DNA of 64,000 bases from Candidatus Krumholzibacteriia bacterium (GCA_963848505.1 CAWKEB010000002.1:389832-453831), one strand, 5' to 3'; positions 6,877 to 43,263 are shown, counted from the first letter of the stretch. Numbers and translations: made by a program. The notes: generated from the letters alone by a model not told the origin.

Positions 6877-7485
6877 ATGCGCCCGCTCACGCTGATCGTC
6901 CTGGTGCCTCTGTTGGCGGCCGCCGTGCCCGCTGTCGCCGACCTGACGAACCTGCAGAACGCCATCGGCCTGTACACCGACGTTCCCGGCGACCTGTCCA
7001 ACGTGAACCAGTTGGTGGTGTACGAAGGCGATCCGGGCACGTTCCCGGTGTACGTGGTGCTGACCAACCCCTACAACGAGAACACCGGGGCGTCGATCAG
7101 CCGGGTCGGGGGCTTCGAGTTCCGGCTCGAACTGCCCTCGAACATCATCCTGCTGGACGCCACGCAGCAGCCGTCGTCGATCAACTTCATGAATCCGCCC
7201 AACTTCTGCGTGGGCACGAGCATCTTCGTTTCCGGCGACGTGGCCCTCCTGCTGACCCTGACCCTGGGCGAGTTCAGCGGCAGCGGCGGCCGGATCATGC
7301 TGTCGCCGGTTTCGACCTACCCGTCGATCGCGGGCTCCATGGCGGTGACCGACGCCGACGACGACTTCTCCCTGTCGGCGGCCGTACCCGCGTCGGGCCG
7401 TTTCGATGCGCCGGTGTTCTGCGTCTTCTGCCGCCAATACGACGAGGAGTCCACCTGGGGCGGCATCAAGACCCTGTTCCGCTAG
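6877..7485 (+). CDS. small secreted protein carrying the C-terminal WG-K tag (ends ESTWGGIKTLFR)
   Basis: Signal peptide MRPLTLIVLVPLLAAAVPAVA; GAAGGA lies upstream of the ATG. I recognise no family. Confidence 0.7.
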   Translation: MRPLTLIVLVPLLAAAVPAVADLTNLQNAIGLYTDVPGDLSNVNQLVVYEGDPGTFPVYVVLTNPYNENTGASISRVGGFEFRLELPSNIILLDATQQPSSINFMNPPNFCVGTSIFVSGDVALLLTLTLGEFSGSGGRIMLSPVSTYPSIAGSMAVTDADDDFSLSAAVPASGRFDAPVFCVFCRQYDEESTWGGIKTLFR

Positions 7486-7505
7486 CCGCGCCGCCCGGTG
7501 TCCCG

Positions 7506-8498
7506 CTAGGGCCGCGGCCCGTCGTGGCACTGGTAGCAGGACACCCCGGTCCATCCCCCGCGGAAATCCGCTCCGTGGCACACCGAGCACGAGTGGGTGC
7601 CGAAGTCCTCGGCGTAGGTTCCGTGCTGGTTCCGACCGCGCCAGCCGATGGGATGCCCGCCCGGCCCGTCGTGGCAGGCGTAGCACGAGACCTCGCTCCA
7701 GCCGCCCTGGTAGTCCTCGCCGTGGCAGTTGCGGCAGCTGAGGGCCGAATTCTCCGCGACGAACGGGCCGTGGTTCGAGCCCAGCTCCCAGTTGGGCTCG
7801 TGGCCGCCGGGGCCGTCATGGCAGCGCCAGCAGGAGATGCCGCTCCAGCCGCCGAGGTAGTCCTCCCCGTGGCAGGGCTTGCAGGACAGGGCGGAGTTGC
7901 GGTTCACCTCGGTGCCGTGGCGCGAGGTTGTCCAGCTGCCGGAGTGGCCGCCCGGTCCGTCGTGGCACTGGTAGCACGAGACGCCGCTGCTGCCGCCGGT
8001 GAAATCCGCGCCGTGGCAGCCGACGCACGACGATGCGCTGCTGCCCCGCACGTACGCCCCATGCTGCGCCCCTTCGGCCCAGTCTTCGGGATGGGCGCCG
8101 CTGGGTCCGTCGTGGCACTGGTAGCACGACACACCGCTCCAGCCGCCCAGGTAGTCGTCGCCGTGGCAGGCTGCGCAGAGCGCCGCGCCGTTGGCCTCGA
8201 CCTCGGCACCGTGGCCGGCAGGATCGGCCCAGCCCGCGGGATGGCCGCCGGGCCCGTCGTGGCAGCCGTAGCAGCCCGGCGTACCGTCCTTGCCCTGCCA
8301 ATCGTCGCCGTGGCAGCCGGTGCACGAGTCGAGACCCCGCGCGGCGACGTACTCGCCGTGGAAATCGGGCGAGCTCTCCTGGATCCAGCTGTCCGGATGG
8401 GCGCCGAGGCCGGGATCGTCGGCGCGTTCGGCGCAGCCGGCCAGGAGCAGCAGGGCCCAGGCGCCGAGGAGGCAGGCGAGGTTTGCCGGGCGGTTCAT
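7506..8498 (-). CDS. 12-heme c-type cytochrome lipoprotein built from six diheme repeats
   Basis: ATG at 8498 gives MNRPANLACLLGAWALLLLAGCAE, a lipobox signal. There are 12 CXXCH motifs in a repeated pattern CxxCHGxD[YFW]xGGxxGxSC[YW]xCHDGPGGH. The upstream part of the 648-aa track ORF overlaps the next gene in another frame. Confidence 0.85.
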   Translation of the reverse strand: MNRPANLACLLGAWALLLLAGCAERADDPGLGAHPDSWIQESSPDFHGEYVAARGLDSCTGCHGDDWQGKDGTPGCYGCHDGPGGHPAGWADPAGHGAEVEANGAALCAACHGDDYLGGWSGVSCYQCHDGPSGAHPEDWAEGAQHGAYVRGSSASSCVGCHGADFTGGSSGVSCYQCHDGPGGHSGSWTTSRHGTEVNRNSALSCKPCHGEDYLGGWSGISCWRCHDGPGGHEPNWELGSNHGPFVAENSALSCRNCHGEDYQGGWSEVSCYACHDGPGGHPIGWRGRNQHGTYAEDFGTHSCSVCHGADFRGGWTGVSCYQCHDGPRP

Positions 8499-8503
8499 GG
8501 TGC

Positions 8504-9376
8504 TCAACCTCCGTGGCATGCGGCGCAGCTGGGCGCGGTCGGGCCGTCGCCGTGGCAGGCGATGCAGGATTCGGCCTCGAAGGCGCCGTCGACCGCGTGC
8601 TGTCCGCCGTCGCCGCTGCGCACCCAGCCGACCCGCGAGTGGCTGTCCGGCAGGACCCGGAACTGGGCGTGGCACGAGGTGCAGAACTCGGCCTCGGTGT
8701 GGCACACGGCGCAGTCGAGCTCGTTGCCACGGGCCTTGCTCGCATGGTCGTAGGCGAAGTTCAGGGTGTGGCTGCGCGGGCGCACGTTGTCGCCGGCGTG
8801 GCATTCCTGGCAGGTCGTCTGGGTGTGGCAGCCCGCGCACAGCATGGCGTCGTCGCGGGCCGGACCGCCGTGGCCCACGTCCCAGCCCACGGTGTGCGAA
8901 GCCGGCTTCAATTCCCGCGCCGGGGCATGGCAGACCCGGCAGTCGGCGTAGGCGTCGGCGGTCTCGTGGCAGGCACGGCAGTCGGGCTTGCCCGGCAGCA
9001 TGGGATCGGCGGCGGCCGGGTCGCCGTGGCAGGCGGCGCAGGCGATGCCGGCCGCGGCATGGGCCGCGTGGGCGAAGCGCTCGGCGCCGTACGCACGGAC
9101 CGCATAGTCGCCGGCCTCGTCCACGTTGAGGTGGCACATGGCGCAGGCCGTGTCGTCCTCGACATCGTGACAGGCGGCGCAGACGTCCATTTCCGGCCGA
9201 TGGGATTCGGCGGCGGCGGTCGAGGCGTCGACGCCCTCGTGGCACACGGTGCACTCCACGTCGTTCTCGAAGTGGGTGCGGTGGGGCATGATGATGCGGT
9301 CCGGCAACTCGGCAAGGGCGGCGAACGCCAGCAGCAGGATCGCCGCCGACGGAATCAGGATCCTGGTCACAGCCAA
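8504..9376 (-). CDS. periplasmic 12-heme c-type cytochrome
   Basis: Signal peptide plus 12 CXXCH motifs in 290 aa. The gene overlaps the upstream gene by 10 nt and ends 5 nt before the next start. Confidence 0.85.
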   Translation of the reverse strand: MAVTRILIPSAAILLLAFAALAELPDRIIMPHRTHFENDVECTVCHEGVDASTAAAESHRPEMDVCAACHDVEDDTACAMCHLNVDEAGDYAVRAYGAERFAHAAHAAAGIACAACHGDPAAADPMLPGKPDCRACHETADAYADCRVCHAPARELKPASHTVGWDVGHGGPARDDAMLCAGCHTQTTCQECHAGDNVRPRSHTLNFAYDHASKARGNELDCAVCHTEAEFCTSCHAQFRVLPDSHSRVGWVRSGDGGQHAVDGAFEAESCIACHGDGPTAPSCAACHGG

Positions 9377-10680
9377 CCTCCGCGGTCCAGGCCGAAGGGC
9401 GAGGCGCCGCGACCCATGGCCAGGTCCACACCCAGCAGGAAGCGGACGTCACTGTCGTATTGCGGATTCTCCAGGGCCTGCACCTCGGCGGTGAGGTTCA
9501 GGCCCGAGCGCAGGTTCAGGCGGGCGCGGGCCGCGAGGGTGACCAGGTCGCGCTCCTGGTCCTCGGGCACATCGGCCAGCAGGGCATAGGTCAGATACGA
9601 GGCCTCGCCTTCCAGCCGCAGCCACGGCCGGGCCTGCCAGCCGATCTCGCCGTACAGCGAGTTCTCGTCGCCGGCATCGCCCACCCGCAGCGAATAGCCC
9701 ACCCGCGCGCCCGGCAGCAGGGCGGCCAGGCCGATGCGGTTCGAACTGCGGTCGCCCACGAACGCGCCCTGGTACTCCAGCTCGCCGCCGAAGCGGGCGG
9801 CGCTCTCCCAGCGCAGCCCCGTGCGCAGGACTCGGATGCGCTCCAGGTCGGTGAAGCGCGAGAACCAGGAGGCGGCGTCCACGGTCGGGTAGCGGTCCAC
9901 GTACTGCAGCGTCAGCACCGGCCGGGTGCGGCCCCGCTGCCATTGGCCCTGGGCTTCCAGGCGCGCCCAGCGTTCGCCCACCAGGTCGTAGGAGGCGCGG
10001 GCCAGGGCGCGCAGGTTGCGCACGGCGGTGGTGGAGTACTCGCCGCCGACGGGCCGGAAGGCCACCACGCCGAGGCGCTCGCGGTAGGCCGCCGACAGGC
10101 CGAGGCTGTGCTTCGCTGCCGGACGGAGGACGACGCGGCCGCCGGCGGCGGCGTCCTGATCGAAGTCGGCCAACGCGAAGGCGTGCCCCGAAGGCACGGC
10201 GCCGCCGCCCCACACCGAGGTCTCCAGGCCGCTCCTGCCGCGGTAGACCAGCCGCACGCCGTCGAGGGTCAGGCCCGCCACGCCGCTATGCAGGAACTGG
10301 CGTCCCACCTCGACCCGTCCGCGCGCGCCGAGGCGTTGTTCCAGCAGCGCGGTGTGCAGCCGGGAAGTTTCGAACAGCGGGCCGGCATCGTCGGGCAGAT
10401 TGGCGAAGCGGCCGGCGGTGCGGAAGGTGAGACCGCCGCCGGCCAGGCCGGACGCGGTGCCGGCGAAGTGCTGGTAGAAGCGGAACTCGTCGCTGGTGGT
10501 GCCGGTCGAATCCGCACTCTGGTAGACGTAGCCGTTGGCCATCAAGCCGAATGACCAGGACGGCTGGGGCGGCGCGAGGGCGCCCGATCCGCTGGCGCCG
10601 GCGGGGTCCGGGCAGCCGACCGCGAGCAGAATCGTCAAAGCCAGGGGCGCACAGCGCAGACGGGCGCAAGAGGTTCCCAT
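9367..10680 (-). CDS. putative outer-membrane beta-barrel (porin-like) protein
   Basis: Signal or lipobox-like N-terminus (LLAVGC). Long runs of alternating hydrophobic/polar residues, rich in G, R, Y and aromatics, are typical of beta-strands. AAGGAAG lies upstream. It is the first gene of the cytochrome operon. Confidence 0.55.
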   Translation of the reverse strand: MGTSCARLRCAPLALTILLAVGCPDPAGASGSGALAPPQPSWSFGLMANGYVYQSADSTGTTSDEFRFYQHFAGTASGLAGGGLTFRTAGRFANLPDDAGPLFETSRLHTALLEQRLGARGRVEVGRQFLHSGVAGLTLDGVRLVYRGRSGLETSVWGGGAVPSGHAFALADFDQDAAAGGRVVLRPAAKHSLGLSAAYRERLGVVAFRPVGGEYSTTAVRNLRALARASYDLVGERWARLEAQGQWQRGRTRPVLTLQYVDRYPTVDAASWFSRFTDLERIRVLRTGLRWESAARFGGELEYQGAFVGDRSSNRIGLAALLPGARVGYSLRVGDAGDENSLYGEIGWQARPWLRLEGEASYLTYALLADVPEDQERDLVTLAARARLNLRSGLNLTAEVQALENPQYDSDVRFLLGVDLAMGRGASPFGLDRGGWL

Positions 10681-11133
10681 GGTGCCGCTTCCTTGAGGGC
10701 TGCCTCCGACCCCGAAAGGCCGGCGGATGCGGTCCGCGGGCGCCGATCGGCTCGATCAGGCCCGGTGCGGATCAAGGTCCACGGGCAGCATACAGGCCTG
10801 CAACGCGCAAATCCACAAGGAGTTATCGCACAATAGTGAGAGCGGGATCCAATATCGATTCAGCGGGCGAAGCAAGGCGAGCCCAGTCGGCAGGCGTCCA
10901 GGCGGAATGGGCAATCCCCGTCCCATTCCGCCTGATGCCAAGAGTCTATTCTAGAGGACAATATTTGTACAGTATTATCTTGGGCTGTAGGGCTCCGTGG
11001 AAATGAGTACTGAACTCCAGAGCGGGCCATGCTATACCCGCAGGAACCGATCCGCCGGAGCCTCGGAACTCGCCGCCGGCGAACCGCGCACGAACCGGGT
11101 GGCCTCGACCCGGATATCACGGAGGAAACAACC

Positions 11134-12882
11134 ATGTCCAAACGCAGATGCCTGCCTGCCATCATCGGGCTGCTCGCGATCACGGTCCTGCTTGCCGCCT
11201 GCGGCAGCGACGATCCCACCACGCCGCCGCCGGCGACCGACACCACCGCACCCCTGATCGTCGCCACCGGCCCCGAGTCCGGCGAGATCGCCGTCTCGGT
11301 GGATGACAGCGTGTTCGTCATGTTCAGCGAAGCCATGGACCCGACCACCGCCGCGGGCAACGTCTCCCTGTCGTCGGGCACGATCACCGGCTCGATCTGG
11401 TACACCGACCGGGTCCTGGCGATCGGCCACGGCGACTGGGCCACAGGCACCGAGGTCACCGTGACCGTGGGTACCGGCCTGGCTGACGTCGCCGGCAACG
11501 CCCTGGCCGCCGCGCACGTCTTCTCGTTCTGGACCGAGACCGCGGACCTGCTGCTCCTGGCCTCGACGCCTGCCGACGGCGCGACCGGGGTCAACCGCGA
11601 CGCATCCATCCTGCTGGTGTTCTCGCAGGAAGTGCAGATGGGCAGCCTCACCTCCCACGTCACGATCAGCGACGTGGTGACCAAGGCCGTCTATCCCTAC
11701 GCGGCCCAGGAACTGGAGTCGGGGCGGTACCTGCTGAATCCCGACGCCACCCTGCCGGCGAGTTCGACCCTCTACGTGACCGTCGACGCGGGCCTGGCGG
11801 CCTCCGGCGGCGGAGCCACCCTGCAGTCGGCGGTGGTCATCGGGTTCACCACCGGCGTGACCGTCGACACCGCGCCGCCGACGGTCGTGTCGACCTCTCC
11901 GGCCAACGGCTCCACCTCGGTCTCGCCCGATCATGGCTACTTCCGCCTGACCTTCAGCGAGCCCATAGATCCCGACTCGCTGGAACCCAGCAACTGGAAT
12001 TTCGAACTGCTGCTGATCATGGAGCAGACGGGCATCAGCCCGTCCTGGAGCGTGAACAACACCGTGCTGACGGTGGCGTTGCCGACCGGCCTGCCGGCCG
12101 GGCTGCCCATGGAGATCACCTTCGTCGGCTTCCGCGACGAGGCGGGCAACGCCCAGAACACGCCCTACACCTGGACGGCCAAGGTGGCCGGCAGCGCGGA
12201 CTACGTGCCGGTGGTCGACGGGGCCCGGTACGCCGACACGGTCGAGAGCACATGGGGCGTGGTCGGCAATCCGACCCCCGACGGCGGCGACTCCTGGGAC
12301 GTCTACCTGCAACTGGACACGCAGACCTCCACCGACTTCCGCATGGTCAGGTACTTCGACAGCGATTTCATCGACCCGACCGGCGACTGGGAGGACTTCC
12401 GCAAGTCCGCCAGTTCCCTGCAGTGGACGGGCTTCGGGAGCGACGGGGGCACCAAGGCGCGCCGCCAGGTCCTGAAGGCCGTCGATAAGAACGACTTCGA
12501 CACCCCGCTGACCATCCTGCCGCTGCCGATCGCGGTGGGCACCTGGTACTCCAGCACCACGGTCACCGTGCCCGGCGAAGGCAGCTATGCCGCGTCGCTG
12601 CAGGGCCGGGTGCTGGGCAAGGTCGACTATCCGCTTCCCCAGTCGGGCGGCACGGTCTTCTACAAGGACGCCTGGAAGGTGGTGCGCACCATGACGGTCT
12701 CGCTGGGCAGCGAGCCGGCCTTCACGCAGGTCGACACCGTGTGGTACTCCGCGACCCTGGGCGAAGTCCACAGCAAACACTACGAGACCGATCACATCGA
12801 CGACGAGTGGTACACGGAGGAAGCCTGGCGCTTCCCGGCCTTCTTCGCCAAGTCGAGCCTCGGCACGGAGTCGGGCTTCTGA
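11134..12882 (+). CDS. surface lipoprotein with three SbsA/Big_5-like Ig domains
   Basis: ATG at 11134 follows GGAGG. The lipobox is LLAACGSD. The pattern P..G...V......I.V.FSE.MDP recurs three times. Confidence 0.7.
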   Translation: MSKRRCLPAIIGLLAITVLLAACGSDDPTTPPPATDTTAPLIVATGPESGEIAVSVDDSVFVMFSEAMDPTTAAGNVSLSSGTITGSIWYTDRVLAIGHGDWATGTEVTVTVGTGLADVAGNALAAAHVFSFWTETADLLLLASTPADGATGVNRDASILLVFSQEVQMGSLTSHVTISDVVTKAVYPYAAQELESGRYLLNPDATLPASSTLYVTVDAGLAASGGGATLQSAVVIGFTTGVTVDTAPPTVVSTSPANGSTSVSPDHGYFRLTFSEPIDPDSLEPSNWNFELLLIMEQTGISPSWSVNNTVLTVALPTGLPAGLPMEITFVGFRDEAGNAQNTPYTWTAKVAGSADYVPVVDGARYADTVESTWGVVGNPTPDGGDSWDVYLQLDTQTSTDFRMVRYFDSDFIDPTGDWEDFRKSASSLQWTGFGSDGGTKARRQVLKAVDKNDFDTPLTILPLPIAVGTWYSSTTVTVPGEGSYAASLQGRVLGKVDYPLPQSGGTVFYKDAWKVVRTMTVSLGSEPAFTQVDTVWYSATLGEVHSKHYETDHIDDEWYTEEAWRFPAFFAKSSLGTESGF

Positions 12883-13690: not shown

Positions 13691-16600
13691 CTACCGCACC
13701 AGCGTCATCCGCGCCAACCGCGTGCCGAGCGTGGACTCCAGGCGCACGAAGTAGACGCCGGACGCCGCCGTACCGCCGGACCGCGACCGCCCGTCCCAGC
13801 GGACCACGTGGACGCCGGGCCCGCAGGTCCGCCCGTCGACCAGTTGAACCACGAGCCGTCCCGCCACGTCGTAGATGCCGAGGTTCACCGTCGCCGTGGC
13901 CGGCAGCTCGAAGCGCAGCTGCGTCGCGGGGTTGGCGGGATTGGGCCAGGGAGAAGCCAGGGACAGGGCCGACGGCACCGCCGGCACACCGCTCGGTCCG
14001 ACCGGCTCGTAGACCGTCAGGCGCTGGTTGACTGCGAGGCTCTTCTCGCCCAGCGGCAGGGTCTGCACCGTACCGTCGGTCCAGCGCACCTGCACGGAAT
14101 CGACCTGCACCGCCGTCCCGAGCCCGAACGACAGCACGGCCTCCGGCTGGCTCAGGTAGCCGGAGCCGCCCGAGACCTCCCGGATCTGGGCTGCCCCTGC
14201 GGCGAAGACCGTCACCCGCACGCCGATAGCCATGGCGTTGGAGGCCCGGCCCCTCAGCTCGACCTGGAGCCAGTTGCGACCCGTCTCCTGGTCGTTGCGC
14301 AGGAAGGTCAGGTTGGCGCCGTTGGCCACGACCAGGTCGGGGTCACCGTCCCGATCCCAGTCCGCCCAGGCGGCTCCGTTGCCGGAAACGCCCAGCACGT
14401 GATCGACGGTGAAACCGCCACCCCCGGTGTTGGCCAGCATGTAGCCGCCGTAGGTCAGGTCCAGATCGCCGTCGAGGTCGTAATCGACCCACGCCACGCT
14501 CCAGGCGCCACCATCGTTGACCGGCAGCACCACGGGGGTGAACACGTCGCCGCCGTCGTTACGCAGCAGGGCCTGCCCGATGGCAAGGTCCAGGTCGCCG
14601 TCGTTGTCGTAGTCTCCCCAGGCGGCGGAGACCTGCGTGAACTCGCCGAAGACGGCGTCGGCAACCGGCGTGAAGGTGCCGCCGTCGTTGCGTGCCAGCA
14701 CGCTCCCGCCAGGATAGAAGGCCGACGACGTTCTCAGCACGAGCACGTCGTCGTCGCCATCGTTGTCGTAGTCCCCGCAGACGGCGTTTTCGCTCAAGCC
14801 GCCGATCCCGAGACCCGTCGAGGTCGCCACCGTGAACCAGGTGCTGCCGTTGTTGCGGTACAGGCGGTTGGCGGAATCGGGCCAGAAGCTCGCCTCGACG
14901 TTGGTCGCATAGAGATCGAGCCAGCCGTCGCGGTCGAAATCCGTCCAGGCCAGCCCGGTCCAGGTCGACAGGAGGTCCAGGGGCGCGGGCGGCGCTAAGG
15001 CGAAAGTGCGCAGATGCCCGCCGTCGTTGTGGGAGACCTGGGTGCACGCGTAGATCCCGTTCACCGCCAGGTCGGGCCGGCCGTCGTTGTCATGGTCGCC
15101 CCAGGCCAAGCCGCGGCCTTCGGCGACCCCGGGGGAATCGTCGTAGCTGAACGTCCCGCCGACATTGCGCCAGACCTGGACCGGTCCGGACTCGATATAG
15201 CCGTCGCTGGTGGCCGCCAGGTCCGGGTCGCCGTCACTGTCGACGTCGCCCCAGGCCACGCCGCGGTAGCCCAGGCCCGACGGGAGACCGGACACGTCGG
15301 TGCGGGTGAACGGTTGCGGCTCGTTGATATCGATGATCTGGTTGACGGCCACGTTGTGCAGCCTCTGCGACTCCTGGCCGCTGCGAGGCCAGTAGATCTC
15401 CAGTACGTCGATCACCATGGCGGTGCCCAGGCCGAAATGCGCCGGCAGCATGTTCTGGCTCGGCGTGCCGCTGCCGCCGCCGACCTCCCGCCACTGCTGC
15501 CGGCCCCCGGCGCTGACCATGATCCGGGCGCCGATGCCGCCGCGGTTCGAGCCGATACCCTTGAGCTGCACTTCCAGCCAGGAATTGCCGGTTCTCTGGT
15601 TGTTCTGGTACAGGCGGCTGGTGGAGCCGTCGTTGGCGAGGAAGAAGTCCAGGTCCCCGTCGCGGTCGTAGTCCGCAAAAGCAACCCCCTGGCCGGTGCC
15701 GCTGACCGCCAGGATCTCCGGCGTGACGTTCGTGAATGCCGTCACCGCGCTGCTCGAGTCATTGCGCAGCAGACGGTTGGCGACACCGTAGCCGACGACG
15801 TAGACGTCCTGGTCTCCGTCGTTGTCCACGTCGCCCCAGGCGGCCGCATACGCCGGGATGGCGAGGTCGGCCACGACCATCGCCGCGTAGCTCGGCCCGC
15901 TTCCCCGGTACAGGACCGTCGTGGAAGTGGGGTCGCCCGGCCAGCCGCGGCAGACAAGCAGGTCCTGCACCGTGTCGTCGTTGTAGTCCGCCCAGGCGAT
16001 GCCCGTCGGATACCCGCCGGGCGTCACGGCGGGCCCCTCGACGATGAAGCCGGACGCGATCTGATCGAGGACGGCCACGCCGGTGAACGGCTGCGGGGTG
16101 ATCATGGCGACGCGGAAGACGCCGCCCCCGACGGTGCCCACGCGCGCGCCGACCGTGGCACCCACGCTCAACAGGGCACCGGAGGCGATGTCCGAAAAGC
16201 CGTAGCCGCCGGCCGCGTCCTGGTTCTGCAGCAGGCTGTTCGGGCGGGAGTAGTTCGACAGCAGCAGGTCCACGGCGCCGTCCCCGTTCGCGTCGACCCA
16301 GGCGGCGTCTGCCGTGGTCTCGGAGAAGCCGAGGGCCCGCACGTCCGTGAACGAGAACCCGCCCGCGGCGCCGGAGTTGCGGCAAAGAAGGTTCGGCATG
16401 GGACCGCCGGCCACGAAGAGGTCGAGGTCGCCGTCATTGTCGTAGTCGGCCCACTGGCCGGCTTCCGCGAACGAGCTGTTCACCGGCGCCGTCGCGACGT
16501 TCGTGAAGGAGCCCCACGCGTTGTGCAGGAGCAGGCTGGGCGCGCCGTAGTTGGCCACGTAGATGTCCTGCCAGCCGTCGCCGTCATAATCGCCCCAGGC

Positions 16601-17716
16601 CGCCGCTCGGGTCGGACCGCTGAAGCTGCCCGTCGCCGCAGTCTGGTCGGACCACAGGCGCGTGCCCCGCGCGAGCCGGAGCTCCGCGGCGGCGGTGCAG
16701 ACGTAGGAGACCAGGGGAACACCCGCGGCATCCGTGACCAGGGAAGGGTTCCGGCTCGTGACTCCGGGCTCCACGGCATGGATCTCCCACTGTCCCGTGA
16801 AGACCGCGTATTTCACCGCCCCGTTCGTGGCGTCGTAGTAGGCGATGGCCGAGCCCCGGATGCAGGTCTGCTGGCCGACGTCCCCCGCCTGGTCCACGGT
16901 CTGGATATCAATGCTGCCGGACGTGCCGAGCGACGCCAGCTTGAGTGCCGTGTTCGTCGCGTCGTAGTAGCTGATGGCGGGAAATCCGGCGCCGACGGAC
17001 GGTTTGTTGACCACCAGCGAGGTCCAGGTGCCGACGTCGCCGGTGACGTCCACGGGGATGAGCGTCCAGCTGCCCCCGTAGTTGGTGGCGTACTTGAGAT
17101 TGCCGCCGGCCGCATCGTAGTAGCTGATTCCCCGGGTATCGCCGGTCCCGTACACCTTCAGCGAAGTGTACTGGCCGACCGTGCTGTTCGTGGCATCGAC
17201 GGTGATGATGCTGAAGCTGGTGCCCGTGTAGGAGGCGAGCTTGAGATGTCCCTGGCCGTAGTAGCTGATGACCGGCCGGCGGGAAGAGTCCAGGGCCAGG
17301 GAGCTCCACTGCCCCACCGCTCCCGTGGCGTCGACCGTGACGTGCCCCCAGGTCGCCCCGGGCCGGCTGGCCAGCCGCAGGTCGGCCGACGGCTCGTAGT
17401 AGTAGCTGATGTAGGGGACACCGTCGCTGCTGATGGCGAGGGACAGCGAGGTTCCCACGTCGGTGTCGATCGTGGTCACGTTCCAGTTGCCCGGCACGCC
17501 CCAGGCGAATCGCAGCCGGTTCGCCAGGGCAGGCCGGTCGATGAAGGCGATGCAGATGTTGCCCGCTGGATCGCGGGCGACGGCGGTCTGGCCCGTGTTG
17601 GCGCCGATGACCGAACTGATGTCGAACTCCGGAGCCGCGAGGGCCGGCGCCGGTCCGGATGCGAGGACCCCCAGGAACGCCAGCAGCAGGAATGTCCGGA
17701 TCAGGCGGATACACAT
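13691..17716 (-). CDS. giant secreted FG-GAP/VCBS-repeat, CRTAC1/ASPIC-UnbV-like protein with a T9SS/FlgD-Ig-type C-terminal domain
   Basis: ATG at 17716 gives the signal peptide MCIRLIRTFLLLAFLGVLASGPAPALA. The N-terminus has six ISYYD-type propeller repeats. Many DxDGDGxxD FG-GAP motifs follow. Two UnbV_ASPIC-like segments are present (NSWLEVQLKG...GGSG). The C-terminus is PNPANPATQLRFELP...GVYFVRLES...MTLVR. Confidence 0.85.
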   Translation of the reverse strand: MCIRLIRTFLLLAFLGVLASGPAPALAAPEFDISSVIGANTGQTAVARDPAGNICIAFIDRPALANRLRFAWGVPGNWNVTTIDTDVGTSLSLAISSDGVPYISYYYEPSADLRLASRPGATWGHVTVDATGAVGQWSSLALDSSRRPVISYYGQGHLKLASYTGTSFSIITVDATNSTVGQYTSLKVYGTGDTRGISYYDAAGGNLKYATNYGGSWTLIPVDVTGDVGTWTSLVVNKPSVGAGFPAISYYDATNTALKLASLGTSGSIDIQTVDQAGDVGQQTCIRGSAIAYYDATNGAVKYAVFTGQWEIHAVEPGVTSRNPSLVTDAAGVPLVSYVCTAAAELRLARGTRLWSDQTAATGSFSGPTRAAAWGDYDGDGWQDIYVANYGAPSLLLHNAWGSFTNVATAPVNSSFAEAGQWADYDNDGDLDLFVAGGPMPNLLCRNSGAAGGFSFTDVRALGFSETTADAAWVDANGDGAVDLLLSNYSRPNSLLQNQDAAGGYGFSDIASGALLSVGATVGARVGTVGGGVFRVAMITPQPFTGVAVLDQIASGFIVEGPAVTPGGYPTGIAWADYNDDTVQDLLVCRGWPGDPTSTTVLYRGSGPSYAAMVVADLAIPAYAAAWGDVDNDGDQDVYVVGYGVANRLLRNDSSSAVTAFTNVTPEILAVSGTGQGVAFADYDRDGDLDFFLANDGSTSRLYQNNQRTGNSWLEVQLKGIGSNRGGIGARIMVSAGGRQQWREVGGGSGTPSQNMLPAHFGLGTAMVIDVLEIYWPRSGQESQRLHNVAVNQIIDINEPQPFTRTDVSGLPSGLGYRGVAWGDVDSDGDPDLAATSDGYIESGPVQVWRNVGGTFSYDDSPGVAEGRGLAWGDHDNDGRPDLAVNGIYACTQVSHNDGGHLRTFALAPPAPLDLLSTWTGLAWTDFDRDGWLDLYATNVEASFWPDSANRLYRNNGSTWFTVATSTGLGIGGLSENAVCGDYDNDGDDDVLVLRTSSAFYPGGSVLARNDGGTFTPVADAVFGEFTQVSAAWGDYDNDGDLDLAIGQALLRNDGGDVFTPVVLPVNDGGAWSVAWVDYDLDGDLDLTYGGYMLANTGGGGFTVDHVLGVSGNGAAWADWDRDGDPDLVVANGANLTFLRNDQETGRNWLQVELRGRASNAMAIGVRVTVFAAGAAQIREVSGGSGYLSQPEAVLSFGLGTAVQVDSVQVRWTDGTVQTLPLGEKSLAVNQRLTVYEPVGPSGVPAVPSALSLASPWPNPANPATQLRFELPATATVNLGIYDVAGRLVVQLVDGRTCGPGVHVVRWDGRSRSGGTAASGVYFVRLESTLGTRLARMTLVR

Positions 17717-18150
17717 GGCAACCCCCTCGGGACTGGGACGGCGGTCAACCGAGCACGAGGCCGGCACCGGCCGCCGCTGGTGTCATCCAGTGGCTGCGCG
17801 GATCGGTTACCGTGTTCGCATGGGACGCAGCGGGAGCAATTCGACTTTCCGGGGCGATCGGGACGATCGAGGCGGGCAGTCTCCGAAAACGGGCAGTTCA
17901 GAAGAACGCCGCGACGGCAGCGGACGCACTGCGCGGGGCGCAAGGTCTGCTCGGCGGACCGCAGGCTAACTAAGGGCCTCTCCAGCACCGCACGCCTCCC
18001 CCCGACGAACGGCCCGGCTGGAACGCGGCCCATTCAGGGGCCGCACCACCACCATCCTCTCACATACCGCGGAATTGATCAAATGATTTCATTATATCGA
18101 ACAATTCCCGGCGAATAGCGAATAGGCATCATAGGGGCATGGCGTCCTCT

Positions 18151-20748: not shown

Positions 20749-21378
20749 CTAGCGGGTCACGATGAGAGAGCGGGTCGTTTGCGCTTCGCCCGAGCGCGCG
20801 CGGATCAGGTAGACGCCGGCCGGCGCGGTCCTGCCGTCGCTGTTGCGACCGTCCCAGGCATATTCGTGGACGCCCGCGTCGATGGACGCGGCGGCCCAGG
20901 CCCGCACCAGCCGACCGCGGGCGTCGTAGATGCGCAGGTCCACCGGCGACGGGCGTGCCACCTGCAGGCGCAGCTTCACGTCGCCGGACGCGGGGTTCGG
21001 CCACGGCGGATCGAAGGTGAGGGCGGCCGGCGCCAGGGCGACCGGCACTTCCGAGGTGACGTCGCTGGCGACCACGCCGTTCACATAGGCCGTCAGGTAG
21101 CGCTCGACGCGGAATTCTAGCGTGTAGGTGCCGGGGGCCAGTCCGTCGATGCACCAGGCGCCGTCCGTGCCGCTGACGGCCAGCACACCGGCGTACTGGC
21201 CGGCCGGCTCGCGCACGAAGATCCCGGCGCCGGCCACGGGCAGCCCGGTGGCGGCATCGCGGACCAGGCCGCAAATGGTGCCCGCGAAGCCGGGCGCGGC
21301 GCACAGGAGCAGAAGCAGCAGGGCCAGACCCGGCAAGCCGGCGGGGCCATGGCGGCGGGCAGCGTCGAGACGGCGCAT
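20749..21378 (-). CDS. secreted CarbopepD_reg-like protein with a T9SS/FlgD-Ig-type C-terminal domain
   Basis: ATG at 21378 follows GGGAGG. There is a signal peptide and a GTICGLVRDAATGLPVAGA motif. The C-terminus is PNPASGDVKLRLQV...GVYLIRARS...SLIVTR. Confidence 0.8.
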   Translation of the reverse strand: MRRLDAARRHGPAGLPGLALLLLLLCAAPGFAGTICGLVRDAATGLPVAGAGIFVREPAGQYAGVLAVSGTDGAWCIDGLAPGTYTLEFRVERYLTAYVNGVVASDVTSEVPVALAPAALTFDPPWPNPASGDVKLRLQVARPSPVDLRIYDARGRLVRAWAAASIDAGVHEYAWDGRNSDGRTAPAGVYLIRARSGEAQTTRSLIVTR

Positions 21379-21762
21379 GGAGAACCTCCCTACTTCCGGC
21401 AAGCATGACCGGATTCAGAGCATATCATATCAACGATAAATTTTGTCCGATATTTATGCACCCTCAGGGTTTTCCCCTGTGTGAACCAGAATGATCCCAT
21501 GCACGATTCCGAGACTCAGAGGCAACGTCGTGCGGTTCTGGCGGACGGTCGGGCCTCTCTCCGCATCTCTCAACCCAGCGAGATTCCAGGTACGAAATAT
21601 CGCCCCCGTAACTAACCGCGTGGCAAACAGTTAATTAGGCCCCGATTCAAACAGAACCACGGCCGGCGTCAACCTCTCGCGACACGATCTCCACGCCCCC
21701 GCCACCCGCCTCCCCGAGTAGGGCGCGCTGCGTGACTCGAAAGAGAGAGAAATCGGACGTTT

Positions 21763-21990
21763 CTATTTCCAAAGCGCCTTGAGATCTCCCCAGGTTGTGG
21801 ATTCGGACGGGACGGATTGGCCGGCAAACGGACTATACAGAACTGTGGCTCCGATACTCGGATTATCGCTGCGGTCGGTGATCCAGGACCGGATGGTCGC
21901 CTCATCGGTGGTGCCCCAGTGATTGTCGCCAAAACCGTAGGTGATGGATGTCCATCTGGACCCGTTGAAGTCGCAATCGACAACGGGCAA
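21763..21990 (-). pseudogene. probable 3' fragment of a WG-K-tagged secreted protein gene (ends STTWGDLKALWK)
   Basis: The frame is open only from 22020. There is no ATG or GTG (only a TTG at 21990), no signal peptide and no SD. Codons are lower in GC than in the neighbours. Confidence 0.4.
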
Positions 21991-22033: not shown

Positions 22034-22300
22034 ATGGACGATGCGATCCGCAAGTACATGGCCGCCATCGGCCGGAAAGGCGGTGCCCGCAGCCGCCGGG
22101 AACTCAGCGCCGAGCAGGCCCGCCGGATGGTCCGGGTGCGCGAGGCACGCCGGGCCTACCGGACGTTCCACGCCCGGTGTTTCTGGTCGTATCAACCGGA
22201 CCTGGCCATCGGCCCGGACGACGTGGCCTGGGTCGCCGAGCAGTTGATGAAGCACGGCGATCGCCGCGCATGGGAGAAGGGGGCCAGCCTGTGCCGCTGA
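22034..22300 (+). CDS. small putative antitoxin/DNA-binding partner of the downstream nucleotidyltransferase
   Basis: 88 aa. A basic N-terminus (AAIGRKGGARSRREL) is followed by CFWSYQPDLAIGPDDVAWVAEQLMKHGDRRAW. From memory this resembles the fWdvd...d.ii.rvL..G....W motif of partners of DUF1814/AbiEii genes. It overlaps the next gene. Confidence 0.5.
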   Translation: MDDAIRKYMAAIGRKGGARSRRELSAEQARRMVRVREARRAYRTFHARCFWSYQPDLAIGPDDVAWVAEQLMKHGDRRAWEKGASLCR

Positions 22301-34463: not shown

Positions 34464-35216
34464 ATGCCCATTTCCGCCCCCGCGACCAGGTTCGCCGCCG
34501 TCTGCGCCCTGGTCTGCGCCGTGCTGCTGGCCGCGGCCGCACCGGCGGCGACCCTGGATCTGACCGGCCCCGCCGGCACCGCCATCAAGGTCAACGGGCT
34601 TGACCTGGGCACGCTGCCGTTGGCCAAGCCCCTGACCCTGGGCCCCGGGGCCTACCTGGTCGAGGGCGAACTGCGGGGCTTCGTAGCCTTCAGCCGCACC
34701 CTGCGCCTGGCCGACGACAACGACCACGTGGCGCTGTACGTGCGCCTGGACCGGCTCAGCCGCAAGACGGCCTGGACCAGCAGCGTGCTCTACGCCGGCC
34801 TGGGCCAGTTCTACCTGGACAAGCCGGTGCGGGGCTGGTTCTACGTGGCGGCCGAGAGCGCGGGGCTGCTGACGGCCCTGGCCGGCGAGCTGCAGCGCAG
34901 CAACTACCGCTCCGATTACCTGGTGCTGCAGGACGCCTACGACACGACCATCAACGCCGACGAGGCCCTCTACTACAAGCAGCAGGCCGACCAGGCCTAC
35001 GCGAACATGGAAGATGCCGCAAAGCTGCGCGACACCGGGCTGCTGGTGGCCCTGGGGGCCATCACCGTCAGCGTGCTGGATGCCCTGATCACCTTCCCCC
35101 AGGTGGACGCCGGGCCGGGCCCGGTGCCGCCGGTCACCGGCTGGGCGCCCTCGCTGCCGACCGCGCCGGGCAACCCCCTGACCACCGTGCACGCGGCCGT
35201 GAAGCTGACCTTCTGA
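34464..35216 (+). CDS. secreted/membrane hypothetical protein (PEGA-like N-terminal domain, GLGQFY membrane segment)
   Basis: AGGAGA lies upstream. There is a signal peptide, a PEGA-like stretch (AIKVNGLDLGTLP) and VLYAGLGQFYLDKPVRGWFYV. Confidence 0.6.
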   Translation: MPISAPATRFAAVCALVCAVLLAAAAPAATLDLTGPAGTAIKVNGLDLGTLPLAKPLTLGPGAYLVEGELRGFVAFSRTLRLADDNDHVALYVRLDRLSRKTAWTSSVLYAGLGQFYLDKPVRGWFYVAAESAGLLTALAGELQRSNYRSDYLVLQDAYDTTINADEALYYKQQADQAYANMEDAAKLRDTGLLVALGAITVSVLDALITFPQVDAGPGPVPPVTGWAPSLPTAPGNPLTTVHAAVKLTF

Positions 35217-36928: not shown

Positions 36929-37456
36929 ATGAAAACGACGCTCAAGACGATGCTCGCGCTGGTCGCCTGCCTGATCGTGTTCGGCAGCGGACAGGTCCGC
37001 GCCGGCACCGAAGTACCCGCCGAATGGCTGGGCATCTGGCAGATCGAGATCACCGTCTACGACTGCGACACCAATGACGTGATCTTCCAGCTGGCCGAAC
37101 TGGACACGGTCTGCCCGGGCACGATCTTCGAGGATCCCGACGGCGGGGAATTCGACCTGACCTGCACCTCTGCGGCCGACGCCAACTCGCTGACCATGCA
37201 CTGCGAGGGCGAGTCCGAGTTCTTCCCCGGCTGCACCGCCAACTTCGTCCAAGATACGGCGGGAACCCGCAACGGCGAGACCTACACCGTGACCTCGACC
37301 ACGGCGATCTCGTACGTCGGCGACTGCTTCGGCATCGAGGACAGCTGCCAGCGCACCGAGACCACAGGTGCACGCATCGCGGGCGTTCCCGGCTCCTGTG
37401 AGAGCACGCCGAACCGGGACGAGACCTGGGGCTCGCTGAAGTCGAGCTACCGTTAG
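36929..37456 (+). CDS. small Cys-rich secreted protein carrying the C-terminal WG-K tag (ends DETWGSLKSSYR)
   Basis: ATG 36929 follows GGAGGG. The signal peptide is MKTTLKTMLALVACLIVFGSGQVRA. Confidence 0.7.
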   Translation: MKTTLKTMLALVACLIVFGSGQVRAGTEVPAEWLGIWQIEITVYDCDTNDVIFQLAELDTVCPGTIFEDPDGGEFDLTCTSAADANSLTMHCEGESEFFPGCTANFVQDTAGTRNGETYTVTSTTAISYVGDCFGIEDSCQRTETTGARIAGVPGSCESTPNRDETWGSLKSSYR

Positions 37457-37469
37457 GTCCGCATGGGGG

Positions 37470-40310: not shown

Positions 40311-40411
40311 GGGGGCGGCCTTTCGGGCAACCGTCAACCTGGGGCTCAGCAGGGCGAAGCTGTAGTCTAGCGCTGGGGTTGGCGGGGCGCTACACAGGGG
40401 GTCGGTACCGT

Positions 40412-40452
40412 ACAAAGACCGGTCGCCGAACCCCCTGGGCTCGGCGACCGGT
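40412..40452 (-). terminator. candidate intrinsic terminator of the GH16 gene
   Basis: A perfect 12-bp inverted repeat (ACCGGTCGCCGA / TCGGCGACCGGT) around an 11-nt loop, followed on the minus strand by CTTTGT. Confidence 0.45.
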
Positions 40453-40480
40453 TGAATGAACACCGATGAGAGTCGCGGAC

Positions 40481-42304
40481 CTACTTCACAAGCACCATCT
40501 TCCGCGACTCCACGCCCTCGTCCGAGCGCAGGCGGTAGTAGTAGACGCCCGAGCCCACGTTGGCCCCGCCGTCGTCGCGGCCGTCCCACTGCACGGTGTT
40601 GAGCCCGGTGGCGCCGACGCCGCTGAAGGTCCGCACCCGGCGCCCGGCCACGTCGTAGATCTCGACGTCATAGGATCCGCCCGCCGGCAGCTCGAAGCGG
40701 ATCTCCGTCCGGGCGTTGAAGGGGTTGGGCGAGTTGGGCAGCAGCGCGAGCTTGCGGCCCGGGGTCGCCTCGCCGTCGCCGACGGCCGAGACCACGCCCG
40801 CATCCCAGTAGATGTCGTCGAGAGCGAACTCGCAGGCGGTGCCGTTCTCCTCCAGGATCACGAACGAGTAGCTGAGCATGCGCAGGTCCATGGCCGTGCC
40901 GCGGATGTCCGCGACCGGGATCGCGGCCTGCCCCCACTGGCCGTCGCGCACCAGGCCGTACTTGGTCTGGTTGGCGGGGAAGGACACGTAAAACTGGTTG
41001 TTCCAGGCATCGATGATGCCGATCTTGAAGGTCACGTTGGCCGGGATCTTGATCCGGAACTTGAGGTGGCCCTCGCCGAAGTCGAACAGGTTCAGCGGCT
41101 GCATGGACATGATGCCCGCACCGAACCAGCCGCGGCCCGCCGTCCGCCAGGACAGCACGTTGTCGCCCTCGTAGGGCGGGATCGCGCCGTCGACCAGGGT
41201 GCCTTCCCACACGTAGATCTCCGAGGAGACCTCGGCCTCGAGGGCGCCGTTGGTGGGCGTCAGGTCGGTGTAGATGCCGTAGGTGCGACTCTGGGCCACC
41301 GGCGGCCCCAGGTGCACCTCGCCCTGGCCGTTCCACTGGTAGACCCGGATGTAGTCCACGTACATGTTGGCCGGGAACGGCATGGAGACCGGCAGCCCGC
41401 TGCCGGGATCGCCCAGGTTGTAGGCGTCGGTGAAGGCGCCGCCGATCGCCAGGTTTGCGATCAGGTAGAACGGCTGCTGCAGCTCGGCCGACTCGCTGTC
41501 GATGGCGAACGGCGTCTCGAACAGGTCGTGCTCGACGCCTTCGTCGACCACCGTCAGGCGCAGGCTGTCCTCGTCCCAGTACAGCCGGTAGGTCATGAAG
41601 CGCTCGATCAGCGGATTGGCGTAGTTGAAGTAGGGCCGGCAGTAGACGTCGTTGGGATCCCAGGAGATGCTGGCGGCGCCGGACGGGTTGCCCGGATTGA
41701 CGGCGGCGTCGGAATAGTAGATGGCGTTGGCGCCCACCGACTGGTTCACGGTCGCGTTGTCCAGGCCGTTGCCGCCGTTGTGGGTGTCGTGCAGGTCGCG
41801 GTAGAGCTGCTTGCCGCCCATCTCCATCATGTCGATCTCGCCGGAGCGGGGCCAGGCGTAGTTGGCGGTGCCCAGCAGCCAGAAGGCGGGCCAACCGGCC
41901 AGGTCGATGTTGGGGATCCGCATCCGGGTCTCGATCATGCCGTACTTGACCGACACCGTCGACTTGGTGATCACCTTGCCCGAGGTGTAGGCCAGGGGGT
42001 TGCCCCACTGGTCGACGATGCCGGGGCCGCTCTCCTGCTTGGCCGTGATGAGCAGGGCGTTGTTCCCGGGCTCGCCCGGCACCCCCGCGATGACGGCGTT
42101 CTCGGCCTTGTAGAACTCGAGCTCGCCGTTGCCCCAGCCCCAGCTGCCGTTGCCGGTCAGCTTGATCCAGTTGTCGAGGTCGTCGAAGTCCTCCGCCCAG
42201 ATCAGGCTGCCGACCTGGGCCTGGGCGGCGCTGGCGACGAGGGCAAGGGCGATCACGGCGAGGATGAGGATGGGCTTGGTCACGGCATTGCTCCTCGGCG
42301 TCAT
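40481..42304 (-). CDS. secreted GH16 glycoside hydrolase (laminarinase-like) with a CBM-like module and a T9SS/FlgD-Ig-type C-terminal domain
   Basis: The GH16 catalytic motif is GEIDMMEMGG, with WPAFWLLG nearby. The C-terminus is PNPFNARTEIRFELP...GVYYYRLRS...KMVLVK. The start is ATG 42304 or GTG 42331. Confidence 0.85.
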   Translation of the reverse strand: MTPRSNAVTKPILILAVIALALVASAAQAQVGSLIWAEDFDDLDNWIKLTGNGSWGWGNGELEFYKAENAVIAGVPGEPGNNALLITAKQESGPGIVDQWGNPLAYTSGKVITKSTVSVKYGMIETRMRIPNIDLAGWPAFWLLGTANYAWPRSGEIDMMEMGGKQLYRDLHDTHNGGNGLDNATVNQSVGANAIYYSDAAVNPGNPSGAASISWDPNDVYCRPYFNYANPLIERFMTYRLYWDEDSLRLTVVDEGVEHDLFETPFAIDSESAELQQPFYLIANLAIGGAFTDAYNLGDPGSGLPVSMPFPANMYVDYIRVYQWNGQGEVHLGPPVAQSRTYGIYTDLTPTNGALEAEVSSEIYVWEGTLVDGAIPPYEGDNVLSWRTAGRGWFGAGIMSMQPLNLFDFGEGHLKFRIKIPANVTFKIGIIDAWNNQFYVSFPANQTKYGLVRDGQWGQAAIPVADIRGTAMDLRMLSYSFVILEENGTACEFALDDIYWDAGVVSAVGDGEATPGRKLALLPNSPNPFNARTEIRFELPAGGSYDVEIYDVAGRRVRTFSGVGATGLNTVQWDGRDDGGANVGSGVYYYRLRSDEGVESRKMVLVK

Positions 42305-42525
42305 GGAGGATCTCGATCCGCCGGCGACCACGCAGTTGGCGGGCGGCGGTGTTTCGGACCCGGTGACCCTACCACTTTATTCGGTCGCCGTACAATGAAA
42401 TTGCATCTTCGGCACAATTTCTTCGCTGCGACCTTAGACGAAACCGCTGGTTTTTGGTCCCGATTCGCAATTTCCGAACCAATGATGAAAACCGGACGGC
42501 TTTGTATGGTTTCCGAACAAAGATG

Positions 42526-42553
42526 TTGACACCGAGCGCGGATCGGGTACAAT
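42526..42553 (+). promoter_or_regulatory. candidate sigma70 promoter (TTGACA-N16-TACAAT)
   Basis: A near-consensus match about 90 nt upstream of the 42646 ATG, in an AT-richer divergent spacer. Confidence 0.45.
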
Positions 42554-42645
42554 CAGCCTTGAATTACGGGTCACCGTCTTGGCGGCCCGGCGCAGAACAT
42601 GGGGTTCTTCGCGATTCGGTATCCGGTAAGCATTGGAGGGTGATC

Positions 42646-43263
42646 ATGAGCAATAGCAAAAGTCTCGTCCTGGTCTGCATGGTGTCCCTGCTGGCCTTCG
42701 CCGTGAGCGGCGCCTCGGCCCAGAACATCCTGGTCAACGGCGACTTCGAGACCGGTGACCTGACCGGCTGGGAAGTCAACGGCGTCAGCGGCACCTCCAA
42801 CGTGACCGTGCAGTCCCCCGACAACGGCCCGACCCTGCCCGGCATGAACAACGCGTTCATGAGCAACTACGCCGAGGCCCTCGGCCTGAACCTGAAGCAG
42901 GTCACCGCGCCCGGCACCGCCGGCGGCGGCGAGGTCACCTACTCGTTCGACCTGAAGCTGGACCGGGCCGACGTGGGCGGCGTGCTCTTCGTGCAGATCT
43001 TCGCCGAGCAGGAAGGCGCGGGCATCGTCGGCGGCAGCGGCCTGATGGGCCCCTTCTGGCCGTGGAACGCCTGGACCACCTACACGGGCTCGTTCATGGC
43101 TCCTGAGACCACGGACTTCCTGACGATCCAGTTCGTGGCCACCACGGGCGCCGCCACCGGCACCAACTGCGTGGCCCACGTGGACAACGTGATCCTCGAG
43201 TCCCAGGGCGCGATCCCCAACGACGAGTCGAGCTGGGGCGCAGTGAAGTCCCTGTTCCGCTAG
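42646..43263 (+). CDS. secreted CBM4/9/22-like jelly-roll protein carrying the C-terminal WG-K tag (ends ESSWGAVKSLFR)
   Basis: ATG 42646 follows GGAGGG. There is a signal peptide ending in ASA. NILVNGDFETGDLTGWEV is typical of CBM_4_9-like modules. Confidence 0.75.
   Translation: MSNSKSLVLVCMVSLLAFAVSGASAQNILVNGDFETGDLTGWEVNGVSGTSNVTVQSPDNGPTLPGMNNAFMSNYAEALGLNLKQVTAPGTAGGGEVTYSFDLKLDRADVGGVLFVQIFAEQEGAGIVGGSGLMGPFWPWNAWTTYTGSFMAPETTDFLTIQFVATTGAATGTNCVAHVDNVILESQGAIPNDESSWGAVKSLFR

Follow-up and report, generated by a model that had tools for sequence, protein, structure and literature searches.

The tail in the window

Here we analyse a 64,000-nucleotide stretch of DNA from a Candidatus Krumholzibacteriia bacterium (GCA_963848505.1 CAWKEB010000002.1:389832-453831; hereafter, the window), in which four open reading frames (ORFs) between positions 6,877 and 43,263 close with the same short peptide, here called the tail (Table 1). 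In its short form, the shared ending reads [S/T]-W-G-x-[I/L/V]-K-x-x-[F/Y/W]-[R/K]-stop. An initial annotation, made from the sequence of the window, had noticed this C-terminal pattern on four otherwise dissimilar ORFs; all four tails were found as described there, each running up to a stop codon, and likeness among the four proteins was limited to their final 14–29 residues. The three genes that it held to be intact, with products of 175–205 aa and clear Sec signal peptides, were recovered as such (202, 175 and 205 aa), and no hydrophobic stretch follows the tail, as had also been claimed: one Arg or Lys closes the protein and the stop codon comes directly after it.

In six-frame translation, the pattern WG.[ILVM]K..[FYW][RK] occurs four times in the window, each time immediately 5′ of a stop codon and never internally, and a looser regular expression applied to the window yielded no additional copies. 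The motif count was zero in 200 second-order Markov simulations of the window (trinucleotide statistics), for a chance expectation of approximately zero. All three intact tails carry an acidic [DE]-[DE]-[ST] run before [ST]-W-G, where the wider consensus (see below) is P-V-P-V-E. At the DNA level, the 36-nucleotide tail segments of the four genes are identical at 17–29 of 36 bases and their codons differ, so that neither a DNA repeat nor recent duplication, which the initial annotation had named as a competing explanation, accounts for the four window tails.

Table 1. Tail genes, tails and other genes of interest in the window. T9SS, type IX secretion system; CTD, C-terminal domain; GC3, G+C content at third codon positions; CBM, carbohydrate-binding module; GH, glycoside hydrolase.
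Feature	Position	Strand	Description
Gene 1	6877..7485	+	202 aa, intact, ATG at 6877; clear Sec signal peptide MRPLTLIVLVPLLAAAVPAVA before D; beta-sandwich body and tail
Tail 1	7447..7482 (with stop, 7447-7485)	+	ESTWGGIKTLFR, then TAG
FG-GAP/ASPIC protein	13691..17767	-	1358 aa; FlgD-Ig T9SS C-terminal domain (Pfam); contrast case
T9SS-CTD protein	20749..21402	-	CarboxypepD_reg + FlgD_ig/Por_Secre_tail; just downstream of the gene 2 remnant
Gene 2	21763..21990	-	75-codon 3′ remnant; no signal peptide; GC3 0.64
Tail 2	21766..21801 (with stop, 21763-21801)	-	STTWGDLKALWK, then TAG
Gene 3	36929..37456	+	175 aa, intact, ATG at 36929; Cys-rich; clear Sec signal peptide MKTTLKTMLALVACLIVFGSGQVRA before G; tail
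Tail 3	37418..37453 (with stop, 37418-37456)	+	DETWGSLKSSYR, then TAG
GH16-like protein	40481..42331	-	616 aa; FlgD-Ig/T9SS C-terminal domain (Pfam); conserved neighbour of gene 4
Gene 4	42646..43263	+	205 aa, intact, ATG at 42646; clear Sec signal peptide; stand-alone CBM4/16/22-like jelly roll; tail
Tail 4	43225..43260 (with stop, 43225-43263)	+	ESSWGAVKSLFR, then TAG
Tricorn-like protease	48956-52816	-	1287 aa; PD40 propeller, Tricorn_C1, PDZ_Tricorn, Peptidase_S41 (Pfam)

Occurrence across genomes

For a survey, the tail was back-translated to a DNA pattern that included the stop codon, and one genome per GTDB species was scanned; by a rough estimate, approximately 50 matches to this pattern would be expected by chance over the whole GTDB collection. 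At least 120 loci matched, most of them from Eisenbacteria (approximately 45 by label) and Krumholzibacteriia; the labels Fibrobacteraceae/Fibrobacter, Gemmatimonadota, Latescibacterota and Kapaibacterium also occur. All 132 pattern matches (132 of 132) fall at the end of a reading frame, and tail ORFs of at least 100 aa numbered 135 when copies outside the pattern's selection were included (a few matches were shorter or cut by a contig end). Positions −17 to −13 read P/A-V/T-P/A-V/T-E/R, at 1.3–2.0 bits each, a conservation that is independent of match selection because the pattern left these positions free; slightly further upstream (−18 to −20), a Cys is present in approximately 45% of tails. 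Judged by this pattern, the tail is widespread in the Krumholzibacteriota, the Eisenbacteria and neighbouring lineages of the Fibrobacterota–Chlorobiota–Bacteroidota (FCB) group.

Copies of the motif in the same loci that the DNA pattern had not selected (n = 25) were also strongly placed at protein ends: 16 end at the stop codon, a single residue is added in five and six residues in one, so that 22 of the 25 lie within six residues of the stop. The other three are internal, two of them in tandem [domain + tail] proteins and one in which the +1 frame has a stop codon right behind the motif, suggestive of a frameshift. The two tandem proteins (a 470-aa ORF on the minus strand of locus L019, and positions 1649-2905 on the plus strand of L074) retain the internal relics WGALKAMFR-YTQ and WGKIKGLFY-PAPP, indicating that adjacent paralogues fused after loss of a stop codon. 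The initial annotation had reasoned that a motif equally common internally or on cytoplasmic proteins would not be a signal; both these positions and the signal-peptide frequencies reported below went the other way.

Labels outside this group of lineages were also encountered, namely Limnocylindria (L032/L118), Kerfeldbacteria (L058), Verrucomicrobiia (L080), Anaerolineaceae (L098) and Alphaproteobacteria (L010). Because the tail proteins in these metagenome-assembled genomes (MAGs) resemble the Eisenbacteria type, and because the Anaerolineaceae-labelled locus also encodes a protein with a T9SS CTD, the contigs in question are likely to be mis-binned, and the tail could itself mark binning quality.

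Three further observations concern the variety of tail genes. At L074 (1649-6325), a tandem array encodes at least six paralogous lipoproteins in which the lipobox is followed by an acidic run (GCGDDD), recalling the lipoprotein surface-export signal of Bacteroidota, and in which the tail has the flavour WG-x-[ILV]-K-G-[LI]-[FY]-R. A secreted family of approximately 130–150 aa (L002, L010, L061, L083 and L108; two members are from Kapaibacterium MAGs) ends in [ST]WG-x-IK-x-MFR and lacks the P-V-P-V-E linker; this may be the same tag or an ending specific to the family. Finally, tail genes stop at TAG, TGA and TAA in 52%, 31% and 17% of cases, respectively; this usage differs from that of neighbouring control genes (TAA 7%, TGA 45%; chi-square P = 2e-4), with TAG at approximately 50% in both, a bias that may reflect high expression.

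Export and modularity of the tail proteins

We assessed export with a home-made heuristic for signal peptides, which looks for a basic N-region followed by a nine-residue uncharged hydrophobic stretch. A signal-peptide-like N-terminus was assigned to 115 of the 125 tail ORFs with complete 5′ ends, versus 242 of 583 coding-like control ORFs from the same loci (Fisher P = 1e-27). Inspected by eye, most of these signal peptides are of the classical type I, with a lipobox in only approximately 8 of the 115. The median length of the proteins is 245 aa, and the domains found upstream of the tail by Pfam and NCBIfam searches of 113 tail proteins are diverse and of extracellular type, ranging from right-handed beta-helix/NosD, lamin-tail domains (LTD) and PMP repeats to NHL and other propellers, CBMs, phosphoesterase, pectate lyase, M36 peptidase and an ExeM-like nuclease. 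Some of the proteins match NCBIfam families that are named for PEP-CTERM, rhombosortase-dependent or myxosortase-dependent signals (the ScyF-like NHL, M36 peptidase and ExeM-like families). The tail is thus modular across unrelated folds, and such a 'choice of anchor' pattern over diverse domains is the usual sign of a sorting signal.

Conservation within the families of the window genes

Relatives of the window genes were examined for retention of the tail. Among 19 relatives of gene 1 (36–83% identity; labelled Krumholzibacteria where named), 18 keep TWGG[IV]K[TS]L[YF][RHQ] behind a short stretch of variable residues; the single exception is a truncated fragment. All nine relatives of gene 3 (40–71% identity) end in W-[GSDN]-x-[VLM]-[KR]-S-x-[YF]-R. 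Gene 4 belongs to a very widespread family with more than 300 homologues, whose source MAGs, if labelled at all, are assigned to Krumholzibacteria or Eisenbacteria, and the tail or a close variant was present in all 120 among the matches listed (those 120 being at least 60% identical); in these, W is replaced by M, L or F and G by S, T, A or D, and the most constant part is K-A-L-[YF]-R. This retention of the tail in orthologues of genes 1, 3 and 4, across which the linker varies, points to purifying selection on the tail.

Gene 2 differs in being a fragment. A phmmer search of 1.84 billion representative proteins aligned it with residues ~315–388 of signal-peptide proteins of approximately 385 aa, and we take it to be a 3′ remnant because it matches the final ~75 residues of these tail-bearing proteins, 57 of 78 of which have the same tail under a loose pattern (the others have close variants). 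Its GC3 is below that of the other three window tail genes (0.64 versus 0.81–0.92), and it abuts a small plus-strand ORF at 22034-22300. A segment of approximately 45 residues upstream of its tail recurs three to five times inside giant proteins of 1800–4600 aa (P0168, P0179, P0181, P0191 and P0210), and is therefore a repeat module of its own.

In the surroundings of gene 1, synteny is partly kept (a two-component/DASS unit in three of four genomes and a multihaem cytochrome operon in some), which is uninformative on the tail. Upstream of gene 3, a 250-aa signal-peptide protein (34464-35216, plus strand) ends in HAAVKLTF-stop; its terminal Phe is of the beta-signal type of outer-membrane proteins (OMPs), versus the terminal Arg of the tail.

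Relation to the T9SS

T9SS occurs in FCB-group lineages, and the three T9SS/FlgD-Ig CTDs that the initial annotation had placed on other proteins of the window are real, with matches to PF13860/PF18962 (Table 1). One of these genes lies beside the gene 2 remnant, which indicates that both signals are in use within one genome. It is conceivable that the tail is a minimal, CTD-less T9SS signal, or that it docks proteins onto T9SS-anchored surface proteins, so that the T9SS itself would be the reader and no new machinery would be required. Nearly all labelled taxa that hold the tail belong to the FCB group, and FlgD-Ig cargo genes are present in 32 of 121 tail loci (the window and 120 others) and adjacent to two of the four window tail genes; however, this adjacency (26% of loci) is close to what the cargo density of the window would yield by chance alone.

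In sister proteins, the tail takes the slot of the CTD. At L022, adjacent paralogues with 70% identity differ in their ends, the tail in one and a T9SS CTD in the other, and in the L106/L092 pair the distance from the end of the shared domain to the C-terminus is 21 aa in the tail protein versus 110 aa in the CTD protein. The orthologue of gene 4 adjoins a GH16-like protein of approximately 600 aa in four of four genomes (window, 40481-43263; L124, 3911-6612; L126, 5226-10052; L128, 3761-6633), with a FlgD-Ig match in three of the four copies, that of the window included, and a T9SS-type C-terminal end in all of them. At L126, an Eisenbacteria locus, the GH16-like enzyme is flanked by three tail proteins within a cluster that resembles one for glucan utilization, with GH16, GH97, ROK and MFS (major facilitator superfamily) genes. 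This context suggests that tail proteins work extracellularly beside T9SS-anchored enzymes, and is the best, albeit indirect, clue to a surface destination.

The tail itself shares little with the CTD. It spans at most approximately 20 aa, compared with 70–100 aa for the Ig-like sandwich of a CTD, and PF18962 and PF13860 were absent both from the 25 commonest Pfam families of the 113 tail proteins (four further families had one member each) and from the matches of the window tail proteins, although the same models do match the three true CTD proteins of the window. The last residues of the CTD of Porphyromonas gingivalis RgpB are essential for export. We considered the tail as a mimic of the last CTD strand ([KR]-h-x-h-h-[KR]-COOH). 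This was ruled out by a position matrix built from the last seven residues of 36 local T9SS CTDs, which scored tails at −9.7 bits, left-out CTDs at +11.2 and random C-termini at −13.8. Agreement between tail and CTD over these seven residues was confined to the final R and L(−3), and in an alignment of the 36 local CTDs the WG-x-IK element was not found in or before the domain. The separateness of tail and CTD, as first proposed, is consistent with both the profile searches and the matrix, and we regard a reading of the tail by the T9SS as unlikely.

Structure of the tail

AlphaFold2 models of two of the window proteins place the tail outside the fold. For gene 1, a confident beta-sandwich (mean predicted local distance difference test score (pLDDT), 81.7; weak cohesin-like match, TM ~0.4) is followed by tail residues 192–202 as coil with pLDDT <50; for gene 4, modelled from a 60-sequence alignment, the fold (Foldseek matches to CBM4, CBM16 and CBM22) extends to residue 186, followed by a disordered linker and a seven-residue helix, W197–L203, with pLDDT ~50. 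In these models, the tail is predicted to be a linear appendage outside the folded domain. On a helical wheel, positions −9 (W/M/L/F), −6 (I/V/L), −3 (L/M) and −2 (Y/F) share an arc of 120 degrees, with K(−5) and R(−1) on its flanks and the variable −7 opposite, and from this conservation pattern we infer an amphipathic helical face.

A helix of this kind, short, cationic and amphipathic and with abundant Trp and Tyr, could also hold proteins to the membrane or to lipopolysaccharide non-covalently and with no reader at all, as do the C-terminal anchors of Escherichia coli PBP5/PBP6. The clustering of conserved hydrophobic positions on one putative helical face between K and R, the modelled helix on a flexible linker in gene 4, and the exchange of W for M, L or F in orthologues would all fit such an anchor. 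At 9–10 residues (2.5 turns), however, the tail is much shorter than known amphipathic anchors (~18 residues), and the near-invariance of G, K and R across phyla, along with flavours specific to individual genomes (see below), favours a protein partner over a lipid surface. A few tail proteins, moreover, are lipoproteins, for which a second anchor would be superfluous. We consider a reader-free anchor improbable.

Search for a reader

No NCBIfam or Pfam model matched the tails of the four window proteins, of the 113 tail proteins or of isolated tail peptides at E ≤ 10, and this comparison with sorting-signal models, which the initial annotation had recommended, leaves the tail outside the signals described there. 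Likewise, sorting-signal models were not among the 25 commonest NCBIfam families matching the 113 tail proteins at E ≤ 0.1, five isolated tail peptides matched no NCBIfam family at E ≤ 10, and a consensus tail peptide had no match to PDB sequences at E ≤ 10. The tail was not described in the literature searched (on the motif, and on sorting and T9SS in Eisenbacteria/Krumholzibacteriota). The tail is distinct from every signal family testable here, as each tested defining feature failed.

Neighbouring genes were clustered by all-against-all BLAST of 1048 ORFs from the 120 loci and the window. Apart from tail proteins, the recurrent clusters were T9SS cargo (32 loci), two-component systems (16), ABC ATPases (7), Ser/Thr kinases (6) and TPR/glycosyltransferase-like proteins (5), with smaller clusters that on reading of their sequences resemble housekeeping enzymes; no exosortase, rhombosortase or sortase family recurred in these 121 loci. 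The tails themselves were also compared: non-homologous tails agree at 4.8 of 13 free positions within a genome versus 3.5 of 13 between genomes, a difference reached by none of 2000 label permutations. A protein reader that co-evolves with the tails of its own genome would produce such a within-genome flavour.

One candidate for reading a C-terminus is the Tricorn-like S41 protease encoded in the window (Table 1), a speculative choice, as no link between it and the tail was seen. More generally, the tail could be a tag for proteolysis or quality control through which a PDZ-containing envelope protease (S41/Prc-like, Tricorn-like or HtrA) processes, activates or degrades its cargo. A strictly C-terminal position would suit PDZ-type recognition, but the PDZ domains of Prc/Tsp-type proteases prefer non-polar C-termini and the tail ends in Arg or Lys; furthermore, the conservation of a degradation tag in orthologues on more than 100 families of extracellular type would be hard to explain, and no linkage to a protease was seen in the 121 loci. 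This explanation is, in our estimation, very improbable.

Last, the notion that the tail is no functional unit (but arises from chance, a shared cryptic domain, a DNA repeat or a translational feature such as stop-codon read-through) takes its appeal from the TAG that ends all four window tail genes, and is effectively refuted by the near-zero chance expectation, the unrelated folds upstream, the differing codons, the lack of conservation past the stop, the use of TAG by 20 of the 40 window genes tallied and the mixed stops of tail genes at large, the last two of which rule out read-through or any other TAG-specific effect.

A putative address tag for exported proteins

We propose that the tail is a portable, linear C-terminal recognition tag of Sec-exported proteins, by which a receptor would address them to the cell surface or dock them there, and we assign this reading a probability of roughly 60%. 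The tag would have two parts. The first would be a flexible linker, which is acidic and rich in Ser/Thr in this genome and has P-[VT]-P-[VT]-[ER] as its wider consensus; it would be followed by a basic amphipathic segment of 9–10 residues, [ST]-W-G-x-[IVL]-K-x-[LM]-[YF]-R, placed at the C-terminus or no more than a few residues from it. After export and removal of the signal peptide, the exposed tail would be bound by a component of the envelope through its hydrophobic face (W, I/V, L and Y/F), with the conserved Lys and the terminal Arg on either side, and this component would then deliver the cargo to, or hold it at, the cell surface or outer membrane, in parallel to the T9SS CTD route of the same genome. 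The existence of a reader, binding by the helical face and a cell-surface destination are the parts of this scheme that we infer. The suggestion in the initial annotation of a second, short C-terminal signal outside the named systems is supported by these results, with sorting as its presumed role.

Several results weigh against this proposal. The signal-peptide heuristic scores 41% of control ORFs as positive. Among divergent members of the gene 2 family, 2–6 residues are added past the motif, so recognition of a free carboxylate cannot be universal. The helix appears in only one of the two models, and there with low confidence (pLDDT ~50). Clustering of the neighbours in 121 loci revealed no dedicated reader, enzyme or transporter family that accompanies tail genes, and hidden paralogy or gene conversion could be the source of the likeness among tails within a genome.

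A stronger form of the proposal, in which FCB candidate phyla (Krumholzibacteriota, Eisenbacteria and relatives) have an envelope pathway for sorting or surface docking that has so far escaped recognition, with its own receptor or enzyme and in parallel to T9SS, and in which the tail marks the cargo of that pathway, is one that we put forward more tentatively, at somewhat less than even odds. If true, the tail would be the first bacterial sorting signal on Sec-exported proteins to be short, linear and C-terminal and to lack a membrane-spanning segment.

Each of the LPXTG, PEP-CTERM and T9SS CTD signals has pointed the way to a dedicated machine and supplied rules by which surface proteomes can be predicted. 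The same tail is found on well over a hundred exported proteins of Eisenbacteria and allied uncultured phyla, and is probably an address or docking tag not yet described. It would mark a large share of the predicted secretome in several uncultured phyla commonly found in soils, sediments and wastewater; were the density in the flagged window to hold genome-wide (a biased extrapolation), the tail could serve something like a hundred proteins in each genome. The cargo includes putative glycan-binding and glycan-degrading proteins, such as the CBM-like protein encoded next to a T9SS GH16-like enzyme. Recognition of the tag would improve the annotation of 'hypothetical' secreted proteins, flag mis-binned contigs and make the putative reader a clear target of comparative genomics and biochemistry, and, if the tail were sufficient for targeting, it could offer a very small, portable tag for surface display.

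Comparison with known systems

As a general idea, a C-terminal address tag is already known, and the function proposed here can be set against several precedents. One is the type-A CTD of T9SS (TIGR04183/PF18962; in these phyla, the FlgD_ig-like PF13860), which like the tail is C-terminal on Sec-exported, extracellular-type FCB proteins and modular over its passengers, and which occurs in the same genomes, often in neighbouring genes, and in the same slot of sister proteins. The tail differs in having approximately 10–20 residues and no fold, where the CTD is an Ig-like beta-sandwich of 70–100 residues, in the absence of CTD hidden Markov models from the Pfam families most often matched by its bearers, in terminal residues that do not suit the last CTD strand, and in the size of its cargo (median 245 aa, compared with mostly 400–1400 aa for neighbouring CTD proteins).

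The signals of PEP-CTERM/exosortase, GlyGly-CTERM/rhombosortase, MYXO-CTERM and LPXTG/sortase resemble the tail in being short, C-terminal and present on many unrelated secreted proteins of a genome. Unlike in these tripartite signals, neither a transmembrane helix nor a basic cluster follows the motif of the tail (which also has no NCBIfam match at E ≤ 10), so a membrane-embedded transpeptidase cannot act on it in the usual way. The P-x-P-x-E...[ST]-W-G of the tail consensus bears a loose resemblance to the 'PEP-x-[ST]-W' of PEP-CTERM.

The beta-signal of OMPs, a C-terminal aromatic read by BamA, shares with the tail the extreme C-terminal position, a conserved aromatic near the end and the setting of a diderm envelope. 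It ends in the aromatic itself, usually Phe, whereas the tail ends in R/K (H/Q in some orthologues) with its aromatic at −2; and, unlike OMPs, the tail cargo has modelled bodies that are soluble beta-sandwiches, and Pfam beta-helices and propellers elsewhere, none of them resembling a membrane barrel. One-step export and the absence of a Sec signal peptide characterise the substrates of type I secretion systems, in contrast to the tail proteins, 115 of 125 of which have Sec-type signal peptides by our heuristic.

The C-terminal anchor of E. coli PBP5/PBP6 has the same layout as that envisaged for the tail, an exported protein followed by a linker and then a basic amphipathic helix; the tail is about half as long, has invariant residues at specific positions and is found on more than 100 unrelated families. 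In putative mode of action, the closest analogy to the tail is offered by the peroxisomal targeting signal PTS1 (-SKL), read by PEX5, and by KDEL, read by the KDEL receptor. These differ from the tail in domain of life, sequence and compartment, and no homology is implied, but in each a very short linear C-terminal peptide on unrelated folded cargo is read by a soluble or membrane-bound receptor.

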